Source: an uncultured Gemmatimonadales bacterium (GTDB lineage: Bacteria; Gemmatimonadota; Gemmatimonadetes; Gemmatimonadales; GWC2-71-9). From it: a stretch of DNA of 64,000 nt. Below are positions 33,001 to 54,000 of the stretch, piece after piece; position 1 is the first letter of the stretch; each line of letters opens with the position of its first letter. The position numbers are program-made. The stretch covers positions 544,001-608,000 of the forward strand of contig CAWGSK010000012.1 of the NCBI GenBank assembly GCA_963825055.1. Direction: 5' to 3'.

Positions 33001-36000
33001 CTTCGCGTCGAACCGCGCGGCGAGCAGGGTCCAGGCCTTCAGGCTGAGCTCGTCACCCTCGACGGTCTTCTGCAGCAGCGCGATCACGGAATCGCCTGAC
33101 GCGTTGTTCTTGATCGCCATCTGAGTCAGGCAGTACCAGGCCAGCCCGTTTTCCGGGTCGGTCTTGAGCGCCTTCTTCGCCGCGTCCGAGGCCTTGTCCG
33201 GCTTCGTGGCGGAGTTGTCGATGCATTCCTTGGCGTCGGACATGGCGTCCAGCGCCGGGTTCAGCGCGTTGGCGGCCTGTTCCCCCAGGGACTGGGGGTT
33301 GGCAGTCGCGCCACTCACCACCACTGTCCGTCCGGCATCATCGTTGAGCCCGGCCAGTCGGGTGGTGAGACGCGTGGCGCCGCTGGTGCGTGCCAGCGTG
33401 GAGGAGACATAGGTCCGGGCCGAGATCGTGCCGGCAAATCTCCGCTGCACGACCGGGCTCAGGATGGCGTCGGGCGGATACCCGAACGTGGCGAGGGCGT
33501 CGTTCATCTGCTCGCGCTTGATCACCTGGAAGTTGCGCCCCCCGATCTTGTCGATCCGCTGCCGCATTGCAGAACCGACCTGCACCGCGGCCAGTGAATC
33601 GCCCGACGCGAAGGCATACGGGTTGGCCACCATGAGCCGCGGGGCGTTATTCACCCGCGTCGTGACCGCCCCCCTCGGAATCTGTGCCATCATGGGACTG
33701 GCGAGGAGCAGCCCCACCGCCGCGAGGACCATCGCACGCGAGTAACGCATTCCATTACCTCCAGGAGCGTGAACCGTCCGGCCGGCGCCTGCCGCCGGAC
33801 CCGTCTGACATGGGCGAAGAGGGATTCGAACCCCCGACTTCCTGCGTGTAAGGCAGGCGCTCTGAACCAGCTGAGCTATTCGCCCCGAGCACCGCTGCCG
33901 AATGTGCCGCTAGATCGCAATGCCCAGCGGAAAGAGGACACAATACCCGAGTACCAGTAAGGCAGCCGCAACCGTCGTGCCGCCCCCGGCGAGCAGGACG
34001 TACCCCAGGGCGACGGACGCAACCGCCGCGGCGAGAACCACCAGATTGCGCATGCCGAGTAGGGAACCCGAACCCGGTGCGCTGTCAGAAGATGCGGGCA
34101 TAGACCGGGGAGATTAACTCCCCCGCCGCTTCCGGGTCAAGCACCGCCCCTGCACGTCTCCTCATGCTGCCGGAAGTGTCCCCTGACGAGGCCACCCGGG
34201 ACACGTCAGCACCCCCCGCCACGAACGCCTCAGGGCCCGGGTGCGGAGGGGCCTCCATCACTATGGCCTCCCGCGCCCGGAAGCGCGGTGGGTTCAGTCA
34301 CACCCTCGGGATCGTCAGGTGGCGGCGCGGGCCAGCCACGGTCCAGGGCGGCGCGCCTCGGCCGGTCCATGCGCCGGCGGTTCCAGGCGAGGAACCCGAG
34401 CGCGACGGCAATGACCCCCCACATCCCACCCGCCGCCAGCCAGATGAAGAAGTTGTACCGGCGCCGGAGCCCGCGATGCCATTCGCTTTCGAACTGACCG
34501 GTCGTGAGCCCGGTGGACGCACGGAGCGCCTGGTCGAAGTCCTCGTCGTTTACCAGGCGCGTCATGAACGGCTCGAGTTGTCCACCGGGAATCCGGCGCT
34601 GGATCTCCAGCACGGCCGACATGGCCAGCGCATAGGCGTCCTCCGCCTCGCTGGAGCGGCCACGCAGCCCGGCATCGAGCGTGCGGAAGTCCGGGAGCCG
34701 CCCGCGAAGAACCGTCCATGACAGGCGAGCCGCATCCAGCCGGTCCCACTCCCCGCTCGCCATGCCCGCATAGCCCTCGTCAAACCAGAGCGGCAGCCGG
34801 ACGTGCACCGCGTCGTGCAGCGCGAGGTGGGCCAGTTCGTGGCGCAGCGTCCTCGGGAGTTCGCCGAGATCGGCACGGAGAAGGATCGTCCGGCTTGAGG
34901 GAAAGGCGAGCGCCGCGCCCCACGATGGCGCCCTGCCCTGCGTGAAACGGCGCATCGCCGTCTCGTCCCGCACCACGACGAGTCGAAGGGGGCCCGGGTC
35001 GCGCCGGCCGAGTCCGGGCCAGTCAGCAGGGCGGTCGGCGATTTCGGCCAGGCCGACCGCAAGGGAGGCCTGCGCCTCCGGGGCTACCACCACCACGTTT
35101 CCCACGCGCACGGACCGGTAGCCCGAGTCGGGCTGCTGCGCCCGGACCGGGACCGTGACCGCGAGGAGAGCCGCGGTCAGGCCGAGCCGGAACGCGGCGG
35201 CTCGCCACCACCGGCGACGAGCTCGAGCATTTCCCGACACCGTTTGCCCCACGGGTTGAAGCGGTTGGCCTTGGCGCCGTCCTCCCACGCCCGCCGCGCC
35301 TCGTTCCTCGCGCCGGAGAACCAGCGCGCGCGTCCCAGCTCGTACCACGCTTCCACCAGGTTCGGCCCTATCTCCAGTGTCTTACGGAAGAATGCCTCCG
35401 CATCCTCATACATGTCCCGCTCGAGATAGACCAGGCCGAGGTAGAAATGCGCGTAGAGCATGGCTTTCGGATCGTTGTTGAGCCGGATCGCCTTGGACAG
35501 GTGCTCGATGGCCTCACCAAAGATGCCCTTCTTCAGACAGATGTACCCGACGTTGATCCGGGCCAGCGAATTCTCCGGCTCGCGCATGAGCACGCGGGAG
35601 AAAGTTGACAGAGACTCGTCATATTCCTCGTGCAGCATCTGGGCCCAGCCGAGCAGGCTCTGCGCCTGGGTGTCCTCGGGCGCCAGGTCCAGCGCCTTGC
35701 GCAGCGCGTCGATGGCCCCGACGTGATCCCCGAGCGAGATGAGGCTCCAGCCCTTTTCGACAAACGTCGATGCTCCCAGGTGATCGGCGTGCAGTATCGG
35801 GCGGGCGGCGGCGAACTGGGGGCCCGAAGGCCGGTCGCCCCGGCGCGTCTGCTGCTTGTAGCGGTCCACCAGGGTGCGGATCTCCTCCCGCAGTTCGCCC
35901 AGTTCCTGGAGCGCCGTCTCCACTTCCTTGAAGAAACCGATGATGTCGCGCTTGATGGATTCGAGCGCGGCCGGGTCGGGCTCGGCCCCCAGTCGCCTGT

Positions 36001-51000: not shown

Positions 51001-54000
51001 ACCCGGACCAGGCGTCCCGCGGCGGGCTCCGCCCTTGACGCGGAAGCCGCGCCGGGCATGGCAATCGGGAACTCGGCCGTGCCCATGCGGGCGGCGGCAG
51101 CATCGAGATCGGAAAGCAGCGACCCGAGATGCGCCCCGGCATCCTCGCCCCTGACGGCGATGTCGATCCCCTGTTCCAGCGCGTCCACCGATCGGAACAG
51201 CAGCTCGAGGACCTCTGGAGAGGCAGGGGTAATCCGCTCGCGCAGCAACGCGAGGAGGTTCTCCGCGCGATGGGCGAGGTCGGTGACGGGCCCGTAGCCC
51301 ATCGTCGCCGCCATGCCCTTGATCGTGTGCATGGCACGGAAGATCCCGCCGACCGGCTCCACCGAAGCCGGGTCGCGCTCCAGCTCCAGCAGGAGCCGGT
51401 TGCACGTCAGGAGATGTTCGCGACTTTCCGCGAGGAACAGCGAGGCGTAGCGGGAGACGTCCATGGTATCACCCGAGGACGCGCTGCACCGCCTCGAGCA
51501 CCCGGGATGGCTGGAAGGGCTTGACGACGAAATCCTTGGCGCCGGCCTGGATCGCCTCGACCACGAGCGCCTGCTGTCCCATCGCACTGCACATGAGCAC
51601 CTTGGCATCGGGATCCGCCTTGCAGATCTCGCGCACCGCCTCGATCCCGCCCATGTCCGGCATGACGATGTCCATCGTGACGAGGTCGGGCTTCAGCTGG
51701 CCGTACTTCTCGACCGCCTGCCGCCCCGTCTCCGCTTCGCCCACGACATCGAAGCCGGCCTGGGAGAGAATGTCGCTGATCATGGTGCGCATGAAGATCG
51801 CATCATCGCAAACGAGGACGGTCTGAGCCACGCGAACGCCTCCGTGCCTTGTGCCTCGGTGATCCTGCGGCCCAAGCGGGCGGCTCCCGCCGCACTGCCT
51901 GGGAACGACTGCCATCAGCCCCCGAACACGGGAGCCAGTAAGACCTCGGTATCGAGGACGATGAAGACCTCGTCACCGCGCCGACCCACGGCCCCGACGA
52001 GACGTCCGTCCACGCCGGGCAGGTCCTCCCTGGCATCGAGGGCGTCGGCGGAAACCTTCACCAGGTCAGCCACCTCATCCACCAGCAATCCGAGCGGCCG
52101 GCCGGCCACCTCCAGCAGGAGGATGGACGGGTCGTCCGGCGGCGGACCGGCATGGCGACCCAGGACCCGGCGCCCGTCCACGACCGTGACCAGCCGGCCA
52201 CGGACGTTGACCAGGCCTTCGACATTTTCCGGTGCACCGGGAATACGCGCCGCGGCCCCAGCGGGGACAATTTCCCGCACGCTCCGTACCGGTACCGCAC
52301 AGTGCAGGTCCCCGATGCGGAACAGCAGCAGCGACACCTGGGTATGGTCAGCCATGTTGTTCCAGGAAACCAAGATACCGCAACGAAAGACGATCAGCAA
52401 CCAGCCCTGTGCCGGCGGCGGCGGCCGCCAGCAAAGGCCGCAGGTCCTGGGGCCATTCGGAAAGAAATTGCAGCGGCGTTCCGCGGGTGGGATGGCGAAA
52501 GGCCAGCGACGCGGCGTGCAAGGCCTGGCGCGGTGCCAGTCGCTCCAGCCGTTCCGCCTCGGGCCTTCCCGGGCCGCTGATCCGGCGGCTGCCGCCACCC
52601 CCATAGACCGGATCGCCCACTACCGGGTGCCCCACATGGGCAAGATGGACCCGGATCTGGTGGGTCCGTCCGCTATGGAGGGTAAGGTGGAGGAGGTCAA
52701 CCACCCCGAATCGCGCGAGCACCCGGGCATCGGTGCGCGCAGCCCGCCCTCCGTCAAGCACCGCCATGCGCTTCCGGTCCCGGGGATGGCGGGCGACGGG
52801 CGCCTCGATCGTGAGCGGGCTGGCATCGAGGTGGCCCCAGGCGAGCGCGGCGTACTGCCGGATGATCCGGCGGGCGGCAAGGGCGGCGCCGAGGCGGCGG
52901 TGGGCCAGGTCGGTCCGGGCGACCACCATCAGCCCGGAGGTGTCCCGATCGAGCCTGTGCACGATCCCGGGCCGCCCGGCCGCGCCTCCGGAAAGGCTCG
53001 TGCCACGCGCCGCCAGTGCGTTGACCAGGGTGTCGTCCCAGTGTCCGGGCGCGGGATGGACCACGAGGCCCGCCGGCTTGTCGATCACCAGCAGGTCCTC
53101 ATCTTCGTAGACGACATCGAGCGGGATGTGGGCGGGGGTAATGTGCCGGACTTCGCGCTCGGCCGGCATCGTCACGGCAATCGTGTCTCCGCGAAGCACG
53201 ACCCGGCTGGCGCGCGCCGGGCTCTCGTTCACCTGGACCAGGCGGTCGGCGATCAGCCTGGCGGCCTGCGTCCGTGAGATCCCGAGCTGGTCGGCGAGAA
53301 AACGGTCGAGGCGTTCCCCGGCGTCGCGCGCCGCGGTGAAGACGGCGCGCGCGCCCTCAGCCGGCGGAAGCGGATTCCGGCTGGGCACGGCGGGCGTCCT
53401 CCCGCCAGAGCGAGATGGCCAGCGCGATGGCGCCGCAACTGACGGCGACGTCGGCCAGGTTGAAGGTCCACCAGCGGAGGTTGCCGATCCCGAAGTCGAG
53501 GAAGTCCACCACCCCGAAGGGGCTGCGGACGCGGTCGATCAGGTTGCCGATGGCGCCGCCGCAGATGAGCCCCAGGGAGAGCTGCCGGAACCGGTCGCCC
53601 GGTTCGGCCGAGCGCGACATCCGCACCAGCACCACGACGGCCACCACCGCAATGGCGAAGAAAATCCACCGGGAGTAGACACCCAGGTGCAGCCCGAAGG
53701 CTGCCCCCGGGTTGTAGACCAGGCGCAGCTGGAAGAAGTCGCCCAGGACACGCAGGCTGGCCGACCGGAGCAGGGTGGCCTCGGCGAGGAGCTTGCTGGC
53801 CAGGTCGGCCAGCACCACCGCCAGGGCCACGGCCCAGAAGAGCCGCCGGTCAGCGCCGCTTGGCATCCTCTTCCGCCTCCTTGCAGGAAATGCAGAGCCG
53901 GGCGTGCGGCAGCGCGTCCAGCCGTTCGAAGTTGATCTCCTGGCCGCACTGATGGCAGAGGCCGAACTTCTCGGGTGCCTGGTACATCCGGCGCAACGCC

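Follow-up and report, generated by a model that had tools for sequence, protein, structure and literature searches.

Within the window, a 64,000-nucleotide stretch of DNA from an uncultured Gemmatimonadales bacterium, a chemosensory gene cluster encloses the gene for an ATPase built from two copies of DnaA domain III (2xDnaA-III). This protein is most likely a conserved signalling component of one Gemmatimonadota class, docked to a PATAN–TPR protein and not devoted to replication. Its cluster spans about 17 kb of the minus strand, where che, TPR, PATAN, Roadblock and mglA genes surround it in the order listed below. The outer blocks (48954..52604, CheW to CheC; 35177..39396, CheR onward) were assigned with Pfam and NCBIfam.

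51915-52355/52604, minus strand: CheW
51469-51915, minus strand: CheY
49584-51608, minus strand: CheA
48954-49580, minus strand: CheC
46269..48947, minus strand: TPR protein, 892 aa (TPR892; many TPR families)
45120..46265, minus strand: PATAN (DUF4388) plus TPR protein, 381 aa (PATAN-TPR381; DUF4388 113.6 bits)
44309..45127, minus strand: TPR plus Roadblock fusion, 272 aa (TPR_16, TPR_2; Robl_LC7 25.6 bits, cut-off 23)
43962..44300, minus strand: Roadblock protein, about 112 aa (Robl_LC7 41.8 bits; reading frame open to 44480)
43501..43962, minus strand: Roadblock/MglB-like protein, 153 aa (Robl_LC7 E 2e-4)
42895..43497, minus strand: MglA-type small GTPase, 200 aa (M. xanthus MglA match)
40928..42898, minus strand: 2xDnaA-III protein (P0001), 656 aa (Bac_DnaA twice, 324 bits in total)
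39315..40928, minus strand: PATAN (DUF4388) plus TPR protein, 537 aa (PATAN537; DUF4388 135.7 bits and TPR families)
38503-39396, minus strand: CheR
38027-38506, minus strand: CheD
36976-38127, minus strand: CheB
36043-36723, minus strand: CheW
35177-36046, minus strand: TPR protein, 289 aa (TPR289)

The ATPase is physically knit into this cluster. Its start overlaps the mglA stop codon (ATGA), and its own stop overlaps the start of PATAN537 (TGATG). The GTPase matches M. xanthus MglA (6h17) over its full length (residues 1–198, 247 bits, E 1e-72), and the 153-residue Roadblock protein matches the NCBIfam MglB model NF052242 with E 5e-7, below cut-off. Twenty loci from 20 genomes in seven family-level groups were compared. 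The 892-residue TPR protein is conserved at near full length in 17 of them and the 153-residue protein in 18; the order CheR–CheD–CheB–CheW–TPR289 recurs in most. Three Roadblock proteins are present, as the earlier note had it, but the third is the TPR fusion at 44309-45127, which is conserved in 18/20 loci, unlike a spurious 160-residue frame that overlaps it. Relatives of the 112-residue Roadblock protein align only with about residues 50–172 of its long reading frame. The same note's two CheW proteins after CheB reduce to one stand-alone CheW followed by the 289-residue TPR protein; the frame at 36720-37070 has neither a Pfam match nor a conserved counterpart. Its comparison of the pathway to Frz holds as analogy only: CheA here carries no fused receiver, CheC and CheD are present, and no MCP gene lies in the cluster, three being found elsewhere in the genome.

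The identity of the ATPase is clear. Pfam places Bac_DnaA at residues 5–166 (E 1e-53) and about 385–541 (E 4e-43) and finds neither DnaA_N nor Bac_DnaA_C, which bears out the proposed architecture of two complete domain III modules lacking domains I, II and IV. The Walker A, Walker B, sensor 1, box VII and sensor 2 motifs quoted previously all occur in the translation. TIGR00362 DnaA scores 458.7 bits over two stretches, and the structure closest to the N-terminal module is B. subtilis DnaA (8bv3, E 3e-53). The two halves share 39% identity, and with the true DnaA of the genome they share 42% (N) and 35% (C). That DnaA was confirmed on another contig with DnaA_N, Bac_DnaA and Bac_DnaA_C; it and the two halves account for the only three PF00308 matches in the genome. 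An AF2 model has a mean pLDDT of 87 and a pTM of 0.50, which does not define how the two modules sit with respect to each other. Weak matches to the Pfam IstB_IS21 and nSTAND families and to PADLOC mad8, DrmD and IetA could hint at an IstB/STAND-like AAA+ protein, anti-phage or from a mobile element, whose place beside the che genes is incidental. This is very improbable: the PADLOC matches are local to the P-loop, where no stretch passes alone, the DnaA matches far outscore those to IstB, no mobile-element genes lie near the ATPase gene, and chromosomal position and gene order are fixed across all seven groups.

The protein falls into four segments, and conservation within the family was counted over 32 representatives:

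42179..42898, minus strand: N-terminal DnaA-III module, residues 1–240 (core and lid), the ATPase that stays constant across the family
41771..42097, minus strand: family-specific helical domain, residues about 268–376, a conserved block
41066..41746, minus strand: C-terminal DnaA-III module, residues about 385–611, variable across the family
40931..40990, minus strand: C-terminal tail peptide, residues 637–656, REKMIWDWPTPADRLLEGLS, conserved in the family

The constant core of the family is the N-terminal module, the helical domain and the C-terminal peptide. In the N-module, Walker A K51 (32/32), Walker B D108 (32/32) and D109 (30/32), and sensor-2 R207 (30/32) are retained, and box VII R158 in only 16/32. 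The helical domain follows a disordered stretch (residues 241–270) and occurs in all 20 loci, with L310 invariant and E270, F274, G304, L336, D358 and P359 nearly so. Modelled alone by AF2, it consists only of helices (pLDDT 85); it has no Pfam match, no Foldseek match at E<=0.001 and no hit in an ESM Atlas search, and its best VIA Z score, 6.3, is to generic helical bundles. A second disordered stretch (residues 615–636) leads into the tail, whose motif, EK.VW.WP…DRLIEE, includes the near-invariant E638, K639, W644 and P645. Five variant architectures were read, and each keeps the tail, even where the second module is gone.

Two complete modules are a property of P0001 and not of the family. 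The C-module of P0001 has intact Walker A (GPPGTGKTH) and Walker B (LLDDI) motifs; elsewhere in the family, lineages L005 and L006 have a C-module without a P-loop, L004 has one without a lid, and L007 and L008 have none at all. Among the 32 representatives, K428 is kept in 30, box VII R534 in 27 and sensor-2 R581 in 28. R534 survives even in the two representatives whose C-module P-loop is gone, and both box VII arginines are missing in four. These conservation counts suggest that the main task of the second module of P0001 may be to complete the first module's ATP site with its box VII arginine; if so, the tandem would constitute a built-in head-to-tail pair.

The family has so far been found in only one class of Gemmatimonadota and is patchy within it. 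By hand count, roughly one in three of the phylum genomes sampled does not have it, among them whole families (0/30, 0/4 and 0/19 genomes), although DnaA occurs in all of these. Seven of 10 ATPase-less genomes have no PATAN domain either. In every ATPase locus examined, a PATAN537 homologue directly follows (20/20 loci). Its relatives include a fusion of two DnaA-III modules with REC (P0211) and fusions of DnaA-III to TPR (P0244, P0247) and MshEN (P0200, P0207); every conserved neighbour and fusion partner is a signalling protein.

Is the ATPase then a partner of MglA? The earlier note offered, as one option, an oligomeric polar landmark for MglA/MglB. On such a reading the double ATPase, as landmark or regulator, would contact one of these two proteins directly and pass Che output to the GTPase switch. 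The overlap with the mglA stop codon, the position after mglA in 18/20 loci, and MglA plus three Roadblock genes immediately upstream all invite such a role. We nevertheless regard it as unlikely. Two loci retain only the ATPase–PATAN537 pair without che–mgl genes, the sole mglA match lying >1 Mb away; MglA homologues occur in all five genomes tested, three of which have no ATPase; and in one lineage, L024, the che–mgl–PATAN cluster is intact without the ATPase, a PATAN–TPR gene directly following mglA. The L024 arrangement makes the ATPase an accessory to the cluster and not a core part. Its constant partner is the downstream PATAN–TPR protein, not MglA or MglB.

Two elements of PATAN537 were delimited:

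40599..40760, minus strand: PATAN helical insertion, residues 57–110 (NCBIfam NF053729, 55.3 bits, cut-off 38)
39453..40058, minus strand: TPR groove, residues 291–492, the predicted holder of the tail (complex prediction)

The insertion contains two MshEN-type 24-residue c-di-GMP motifs, RLGDILVKNGQISQSQLEQAMARQ and KLGEILVDDGAISRADLESYIRLQ, and PATAN537 is probably a c-di-GMP-binding adaptor, although the published motif (PMC5013675), strict or relaxed, is matched twice in only 6/21 orthologues. The corresponding match in PATAN-TPR381 (31 bits) falls below cut-off.

The groove most likely binds the ATPase tail, to judge from a complex model with controls, from covariation and from the order of the genes. 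Full-length PATAN537 predicted with ATPase residues 605–656 gave ipSAE values of 0.81, 0.85 and 0.84, a measure of model confidence part of which may reflect likeness to known structures, since TPR–peptide complexes are common among those solved; the best control reached 0.01. The ipSAE mark used is attained by 116/157 solved complexes and 2/215 mismatched pairs. At least 73% of contacts are shared between runs, the partner has a pLDDT of at least 60, and the predicted interface sets tail residues 627–654 against TPR residues 291–492. In the groove, K459 and D463 are invariant in all 21 orthologues that accompany an ATPase. In three PATAN–TPR orthologues from ATPase-less genomes, K459 is R, R or A, and the chain stops at about residue 482, so that the last TPR (483–537, including contacts 488–492) is missing. 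Most groove residues (N322, N425, N426, Q456, N460) are kept in these three as well, so that the groove may serve different or further ligands.

How far has the ATPase departed from initiation? Eight residues of B. subtilis DnaA contact the DnaA-trio (PMC10721633), and the genome's own DnaA keeps all eight. Whereas the base-capture residues for single-stranded DNA are identical in that DnaA, they are replaced in the 2xDnaA-III family: across 32 N-modules the N187 equivalent is never N and the I190 equivalent never I, acidic, basic or polar residues standing instead, and only 15 carry K or R at the K222 position. Together with the 20/20 synteny and the REC, TPR and MshEN fusions, these replacements agree with the earlier proposal of a non-replicative DnaA-III derivative wired into a signalling cluster.

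A nucleic-acid-dependent role fits part of this picture. ParA-type ATPases of some che operons position complexes via the nucleoid, and DnaA-III modules assembling on DNA in the ATP state might likewise let the nucleoid place or partition a PATAN/Mgl/Che complex. The AAA+ fold and initiator-specific region remain close to DnaA, the R202 and E228 equivalents are kept in 17/32 and 18/32 N-modules, and tethering to a cargo adaptor suits the logic of a positioning system. With the N187 and I190 equivalents replaced throughout, K222 so often lost and the dsDNA-binding domain IV absent, such a role has a low probability.

Quite improbable is a role like that of Hda, in which the arginine fingers would target DnaA–ATP and so couple polarity or chemosensory state to initiation; the search turned up no support for this second proposal of the note. 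The genome has no separate Hda, each half of P0001 bears a box VII arginine, and the 42% identity between N-module and DnaA could also mean that contact with DnaA or DNA persists. However, Hda carries an N-terminal clamp-binding motif, for which there is no room here: position 1 of the Bac_DnaA profile aligns at residue 5, leaving only four residues before the domain III core. The Hda model TIGR03420 reaches 189.5 bits against a cut-off of 194.8 even with both modules summed, the N-module finger is present in only half of the representatives, and both the gaps in distribution and the uniformly signalling neighbours and fusion partners argue for a role elsewhere.

The favoured reading, to which we assign about an even chance, is a non-replicative protein that serves a polarity pathway or a type IV pilus pathway as an ATP-gated switch or scaffold, held on a PATAN–TPR adaptor that probably binds c-di-GMP. 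The 2xDnaA-III protein would be an offshoot of DnaA domain III whose assembly is switched by ATP, in the manner of other AAA+ proteins of the initiator clade, and which does not act as an unfoldase. Its flexible C-terminal peptide would plug into the TPR groove of PATAN537, and the switch would govern when and where the adaptor engages its targets, and thereby also the Che kinase pathway and the MglA, Roadblock and TPR proteins. The likeliest target would be the type IV pilus motor or cell-pole machinery. The pilus ATPase PilB1 of Synechocystis is a binding partner of PATAN–REC proteins (PMC9090330). In the present genome, which is 87% complete, seven matches to T2SSE-type ATPases were found and none to FliG. 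What is new here is a patchy, class-limited ATPase family with a constant core, paired with PATAN537 and predicted to dock to it by its tail, in which the base-capture residues of DnaA have been replaced and whose relatives carry DnaA-III modules fused to REC, TPR or MshEN domains.

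The 656-aa ATPase is encoded within a run of tightly spaced genes, all on the minus strand, that extends from 52604 to 35177.

Genes of the minus-strand run, in order from 52604 to 35177
from 52604 (-): CheW, CheY, CheA and CheC, the leading genes of the run
after CheC (-): 892-aa TPR protein
45120-46265 (-): 381-aa PATAN(DUF4388)-TPR protein (PATAN381), after the 892-aa TPR protein
44309-45127 (-): 272-aa TPR+Roadblock protein
after the 272-aa protein (-): short Roadblock protein
before mglA (-): 153-aa Roadblock/MglB-like protein
between the 153-aa Roadblock protein and the ATPase (-): MglA orthologue
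40928-42898 (-): 656-aa ATPase, Bac_DnaA twice
39315-40928 (-): 537-aa PATAN-TPR protein (PATAN537), directly after the ATPase
after PATAN537 (-): CheR, CheD, CheB, CheW
end of the run, to 35177 (-): 289-aa TPR protein

The mglA stop overlaps the ATPase start (ATGA), and the ATPase stop overlaps the PATAN537 start (TGATG). MglA is similar over its full length (residues 1-198) to the MglA proteins of M. xanthus (247 bits) and T. thermophilus (226 bits). With PF14332 (cut-off 25 bits), PATAN537 scores 135.7 and PATAN381 113.6 bits; the genome yields no other PATAN match. The earlier note placed two CheW genes after CheB, where a single one is found; its count of three Roadblock proteins stands, except that the third is a TPR fusion read in another frame than the 160-aa ORF. 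Two minus-strand frames compete at that site, 44309-45127 and 44557-45039. Since the 272-aa frame is kept in 18 of 20 related loci and the 160-aa frame, which also lacks a Pfam match, is not, the latter is a spurious ORF typical of 70% G+C DNA. ORF 36720-37070 (116 aa) was likewise rejected as a gene, having no Pfam match and no conservation in relatives. The cluster occupies a fixed chromosomal slot (flanks 52348-59447 and 30946-35348), with yggS, divIVA, ileS, a dksA/traR-like gene, lspA and rluD upstream, and a Peptidase_MA_2 gene followed by the mraW-ftsI-mur cell-wall cluster downstream. Elsewhere in the window, three ORFs of 1001, 594 and 357 aa (16229-19234, plus strand; 59494-61278, minus; 13473-14546, minus) have gene-like codon GC3 and no Pfam match at E<=1e-5. 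Part of the stretch is found in five soil-metagenome DNA runs from two studies; no RNA run containing it is listed.

The Frz pathway of Myxococcus is built around a CheA-receiver fusion (FrzE), a cytoplasmic MCP (FrzCD) and the dual-receiver protein FrzZ. The description of the present pathway as Frz-like does not hold at this level: its CheA lacks a receiver, there is one single-domain CheY, the cluster includes CheC and CheD, and neither FrzZ nor an MCP gene is found there. What the cluster does share with the Frz, MglA-MglB-RomR and SgmX systems is the joint encoding of an MglA orthologue, Roadblock proteins, a large TPR protein and a Che pathway. To our knowledge, no DnaA-type ATPase has been reported in the Myxococcus polarity module, and none was found in open-access papers or bioRxiv. 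In M. xanthus, according to the available parts of two papers, MglA acts on type IV pili together with the TPR protein SgmX (PMC7519303, PMC7668184).

The ATPase itself is as the earlier note had it, two DnaA domain-III modules in one 656-aa protein, with Bac_DnaA matched twice and neither DnaA_N nor Bac_DnaA_C. Alignment shows that both halves comprise the whole of domain III, core and lid, and that each ends at the point corresponding to the start of domain IV in the genome's own DnaA. Identity between the halves is 39%; with that DnaA it is 42% for the first and 35% for the second. Walker A and B, the box VII arginines and sensor 2 are all in place, TIGR00362 scores 458.7 bits, and among solved structures B. 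subtilis DnaA matches best. Unlike DnaA, the ATPase lacks domains I, II and IV, the domain-III profile starting at residue 5; its two modules are joined by a new helical domain and followed by a predicted C-terminal docking peptide; and its gene lies in a signalling context rather than an origin region. The real DnaA, with all three domains (domain IV at 92.4 bits), is encoded on another contig. An AlphaFold2 model built from a 32-row alignment (mean pLDDT 87, pTM 0.50) contains two confident AAA+ modules, disorder at 241-270 and 615-636, a short, partly ordered tail, and an all-helical domain at ~271-376 that runs continuously into the second module.

Across 32 full-length representatives of the family, conservation is found in the ATP site of the N-module (aa 1-240), in a block of the helical domain and in the C-terminal peptide. 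Within the helical block L310 is invariant and E270, F274, G304, L336, D358 and P359 are nearly so; the peptide has the consensus REKMVWxWPxxxDRLIEE, with E638, K639, W644 and P645 near-invariant. The helical domain has no clear counterpart in the collections searched: Pfam offered nothing beyond a DUF6879 match of 13 bits, short of its cut-off, Foldseek against the PDB nothing at E<=0.001, the ESM Atlas no usable relative, and a wide VIA-align search nothing better than EzrA at Z 6.3 (3.6 A over 113 residues), within the noise range for helical bundles. An MCP-like reading of this linker, suggested by an 'EGEG' turn, was dropped for want of an MCPsignal match. A defence or mobile-element protein, last among the rival explanations and essentially unsupported, finds nothing in PADLOC beyond matches local to the P-loop, no stretch passing by itself.

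Might the ATPase position itself by way of DNA? Such a DNA-dependent positioning ATPase ranks second among the rival explanations, and the relevant residues are known from the replication initiator. The available part of the source names E183, N187, I190, I193, R202, K222, E223 and E228 as the ssDNA (DnaA-trio) contacts in the initiator-specific motif of B. subtilis DnaA (PMC10721633). Mapped by ungapped alignment to B. subtilis DnaA, all eight of the contacts named there are identical in the genome's own DnaA. In the N-modules of the 32 representatives, the N187 position holds E, D, K, S or a gap and never N, and the I190 position R, H, N, T or a gap and never I (R or H in 17); K or R occupies the K222 position in 15, and the original residue persists at R202 in 17 and at E228 in 18. 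Because the base-capture residues N187 and I190 are replaced and domain IV is absent, DNA handling of the kind seen at origins is argued against; the ATPase may contact nucleic acid in some other manner.

A regulator of replication akin to Hda is third among the rivals. Hda and the ATPase share the design of a domain-III-only DnaA relative with an arginine finger, and close relatives of the ATPase are labelled 'DnaA/Hda family protein' or 'chromosomal replication initiator protein'. Hda carries a beta-clamp-binding motif N-terminal to domain III and, together with the clamp, stimulates the hydrolysis of DnaA-bound ATP. Here only MTLE (residues 1-4) precedes the ATPase core, leaving no space for a clamp motif, and the 32 representatives start likewise. 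The Hda models also fall short: TIGR03420 reaches 189.5 against a cut-off of 194.8, and NF006571, NF005982 and NF051883 reach 65-73 bits against 268-300. PDB matches to Hda (E ~1e-7) are far weaker than those to DnaA (1e-53), placing the ATPase far nearer DnaA, and the tandem of ~650 aa contrasts with the ~230-250 aa of Hda. No third DnaA-like gene was found in the genome beyond DnaA and the ATPase, and it thus lacks a separate Hda.

The gene neighbourhood points to a different partner. In a survey of 20-kb stretches from 20 genomes in seven family-level groups, with the window proteins mapped by tblastn, a PATAN537 homologue directly follows the ATPase gene in every locus. The che, TPR, PATAN381, Roadblock and mglA genes lie alongside in 18, two of which lack some of CheR, CheD and CheB. 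In the remaining two loci, L005 and L006 from another order, the ATPase-PATAN537 pair stands alone between ileS and the Peptidase_MA_2 gene, with DivIVA upstream, exactly the slot that the whole cluster fills in the window; the single mglA match is more than 1 Mb away. Conversely, locus L024 (G036:C12:95001-115000) holds the whole che-mgl cluster without the ATPase, mglA being followed directly by the PATAN-TPR gene. Seven of ten ATPase-less genomes lack any PATAN domain and three keep PATAN genes, and MglA homologues occur in all five genomes tested, three of them ATPase-less. L024 and two further loci, L025 and L026, are natural 'deletion' forms, in which the PATAN-TPR protein is ~100 residues shorter and lacks its last TPR. 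Both the lone pairs and the intact cluster without the ATPase speak against the foremost rival, that the ATPase is a direct landmark for MglA, whose gene it overlaps in the window. The neighbourhoods and the ATPase-less genomes together tie the ATPase to the PATAN-TPR protein and make it an accessory, not a core component, of the MglA module. That it is a non-replicative partner of PATAN-TPR is, accordingly, the conclusion we hold with high confidence.

The closest 120 proteins in a collection of 5.8 billion are 57-88% identical at 93-100% coverage and, where named, come from Gemmatimonadota MAGs; a word-index-free search of 1.84 billion representatives extends end-to-end relatives down to ~30% identity. 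Within the phylum, members were counted by a profile over 401 genomes (best E below 1e-110, tallied by hand; the tallies take in four genomes flagged unpublished, G057, G182, G157 and G097).

Genomes with a member of the ATPase family, by family-level group (f1-f9)
f1, the window's own family: 161 of 166
f2: 71 of 93
f3: 5 of 5
f4: 5 of 7
f5: 2 of 2
f6: 0 of 30
f7: 18 of 70
f8: 1 of 4, two more with weaker single-module matches
f9: 0 of 4
three families of other classes: 0 of 19

By these counts the family is limited, as far as sampled, to one class, in which it is patchy; a DnaA-level match is found in all sampled genomes of the phylum but two. Searches in five more distant genomes, combined with ORF reading, uncovered variant architectures. 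Locus L007 encodes the N-module, helical domain and tail only, in a 412-aa open frame, and L008 likewise lacks the second module; in L005 and L006 the second-module P-loop is without GKT and the lid is replaced by acidic low-complexity sequence; in L004 the second lid is missing. The tail motif is kept in all five. These forms indicate that the tandem is a trait of the window's lineage, and that the core is one ATPase module plus helical domain plus tail. Fusions are found among distant relatives: P0211 has N-module, helical domain and C-module followed by a receiver domain, P0244 and P0247 have long TPR arrays and then one DnaA-III module, and in P0200 and P0207 (1876-1990 aa) an MshEN domain precedes two DnaA-III modules, which a long spacer separates, the second lying at the far C-terminus. 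All three fusion partners (receiver, TPR and MshEN) are signalling or adaptor domains, and two of these types, TPR and MshEN-type motifs, recur in the neighbouring PATAN537.

Conservation of the ATP-site residues was counted in both modules. In the N-module, Walker A K51 is kept in all 32 representatives, the Walker B aspartates in 32 and 30, and sensor-2 R207 in 30; box VII R158 is retained in only 16. In the C-module (~385-611), box VII R534 is kept in 27, including both representatives whose C-module P-loop is lost, and sensor-2 R581 in 28. Counted by pair, both box VII arginines are present in 15 representatives, that of the C-module only in 12, that of the N-module only in one, and neither in four; the single-module forms retain their own. 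These box VII counts fit a head-to-tail arrangement in which the second module would mainly donate an arginine finger to the first, the AlphaFold2 model leaving the domain arrangement unfixed.

The constancy of the tail, together with the TPR domain of the partner, singled out this pair for complex prediction. Full-length PATAN537 (21-row alignment) was folded with ATPase residues 605-656 (32-row alignment), alongside three controls, and ipSAE came to 0.81, 0.85 and 0.84 against 0.01 for the best control; the mark used is reached by 116 of 157 solved complexes and 2 of 215 mismatched pairs, rates that apply only roughly here because our own alignments were supplied. The runs share at least 73% of contacts, with a partner pLDDT of at least 60. 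In the predicted interface, tail residues 627-654 run along TPR residues 291-492, the tightest pairs being 637-641 with 422-463, W644 with 388/391/422, and 650-652 with 321-325. K459 and D463 are invariant in the 21 PATAN537 orthologues that accompany an ATPase. In three orthologues without one, K459 is replaced by R in two and by A in the third, and the chain stops close to residue 482, so that the last TPR and the contacts at 488-492 are lost; these three nevertheless retain most of the groove's asparagines and glutamines, and the groove may serve other ligands as well. Covariation in the alignments lends partial support to the contact. The passing prediction supports binding and does not prove it, TPR-peptide complexes being common in the PDB. 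On balance, the ATPase tail probably sits in the TPR groove of PATAN537. Such an arrangement would resemble, judging from the excerpts available on those systems, the docking of W- or Y-acidic motifs on the kinesin light chain TPR and TPR-AAA+ proteins such as EccA: a short aromatic and acidic peptide, a flexible linker and a predicted TPR groove. The likeness is by analogy only, with no sequence relationship to the ATPase or PATAN537; natural TPR+DnaA-III fusions do exist.

PATAN537 may also sense c-di-GMP. The available text of PMC5013675 gives the MshEN c-di-GMP pattern as a tandem 24-residue RLGxx(L/V/I)(L/V/I)xxG(L/V/I)(L/V/I)xxxxLxxxLxxQ. The helical insertion in the PATAN domain, aa 57-110 (40599-40760), reads as two 24-residue MshEN-type motifs, and NF053729, the NCBIfam model for the MshE-related c-di-GMP motif, scores 55.3 bits against a 38-bit cut-off. 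By the relaxed version of the pattern in PMC5013675, the second motif alone fits in the window protein, the first departing from it at a single position; of 21 orthologues, 6 fit with both motifs and 16 with at least one. Judged from these motifs, PATAN537 likely binds c-di-GMP, and PATAN proteins of its kind may be c-di-GMP receptors. In PATAN381 (45120-46265), aa 59-112 score 31 bits with NF053729, below cut-off. The neighbours of the ATPase share PATAN/DUF4388 with regulators of type IV pili such as cyanobacterial PixG, PixE and other PatA-type proteins, and differ from them in that PATAN is fused to TPR rather than to a receiver, and paired with a DnaA-type ATPase. According to the part of PMC9090330 available, in Synechocystis PATAN-REC proteins have the pilus ATPase PilB1 as a binding partner. 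The genome (87% complete) has seven T2SSE (PilB/PilT-type) ATPase matches, three MCP genes outside the cluster and no match to FliG, and for these reasons the Che pathway more likely serves pili or another non-flagellar output; a pilus-type output of the cluster is plausible. Two T2SSE matches, at G000 C12:109248-110069 and C24:3311-4132, have identical score and length (126.3 bits, 374-aa frames); a duplicated gene or redundant contigs are possible, assembly contamination being 6%.

The association of PATAN genes with MglA/MglB is already published, as the available text of PMC4316618 (citing Makarova 2006) records; in that text DnaA has no occurrence, and AAA or ATPase leads to no passage on such an ATPase. 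No paper linking a DnaA-type ATPase to PATAN, MglA, chemosensory, pilus or polarity systems was found among the main texts of open-access papers and bioRxiv. The family is annotated, not described; the novelty lies in the architecture and the signalling setting, both new for an initiator-clade AAA+ protein. We picture a DnaA domain-III-derived, ATP-gated switch or scaffold that would be tethered through its tail to the PATAN-TPR adaptor and would serve as an accessory inside an MglA/Che polarity or motility pathway. A role as switch or scaffold is a reasonable possibility, put at slightly under even. The fuller reading is doubtful: a replication-initiator AAA+ module co-opted as a nucleotide-driven switch of a polarity and motility apparatus, its W-rich acidic tail tethered to a c-di-GMP-sensing PATAN-TPR adaptor. 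Less likely still is a bolder version, in which the module would still pair with DnaA domain III, so that pole or surface signals feed replication initiation.

In practice, work on the family is limited by its confinement to a single class, in a phylum for which genetic tools are scarce; simple experiments could start from the predicted contact of tail and TPR, the Walker residues and the clusters that naturally lack the ATPase. Known jobs of DnaA-clade AAA+ proteins lie in replication and transposition: Hda, DnaC/DnaI and IstB. None outside these was found described in open-access papers or bioRxiv. If the proposal is true, the poorly understood PATAN domain would gain a defined, testable partner, and MglA-type polarity modules, now modelled with GTPase, GAP and effector only, would acquire an ATP-consuming element. 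It would also mean that the DnaA clade can be rewired into signal transduction, yielding a new class of cell-polarity ATPase beside ParA/MinD and the small-GTPase systems.
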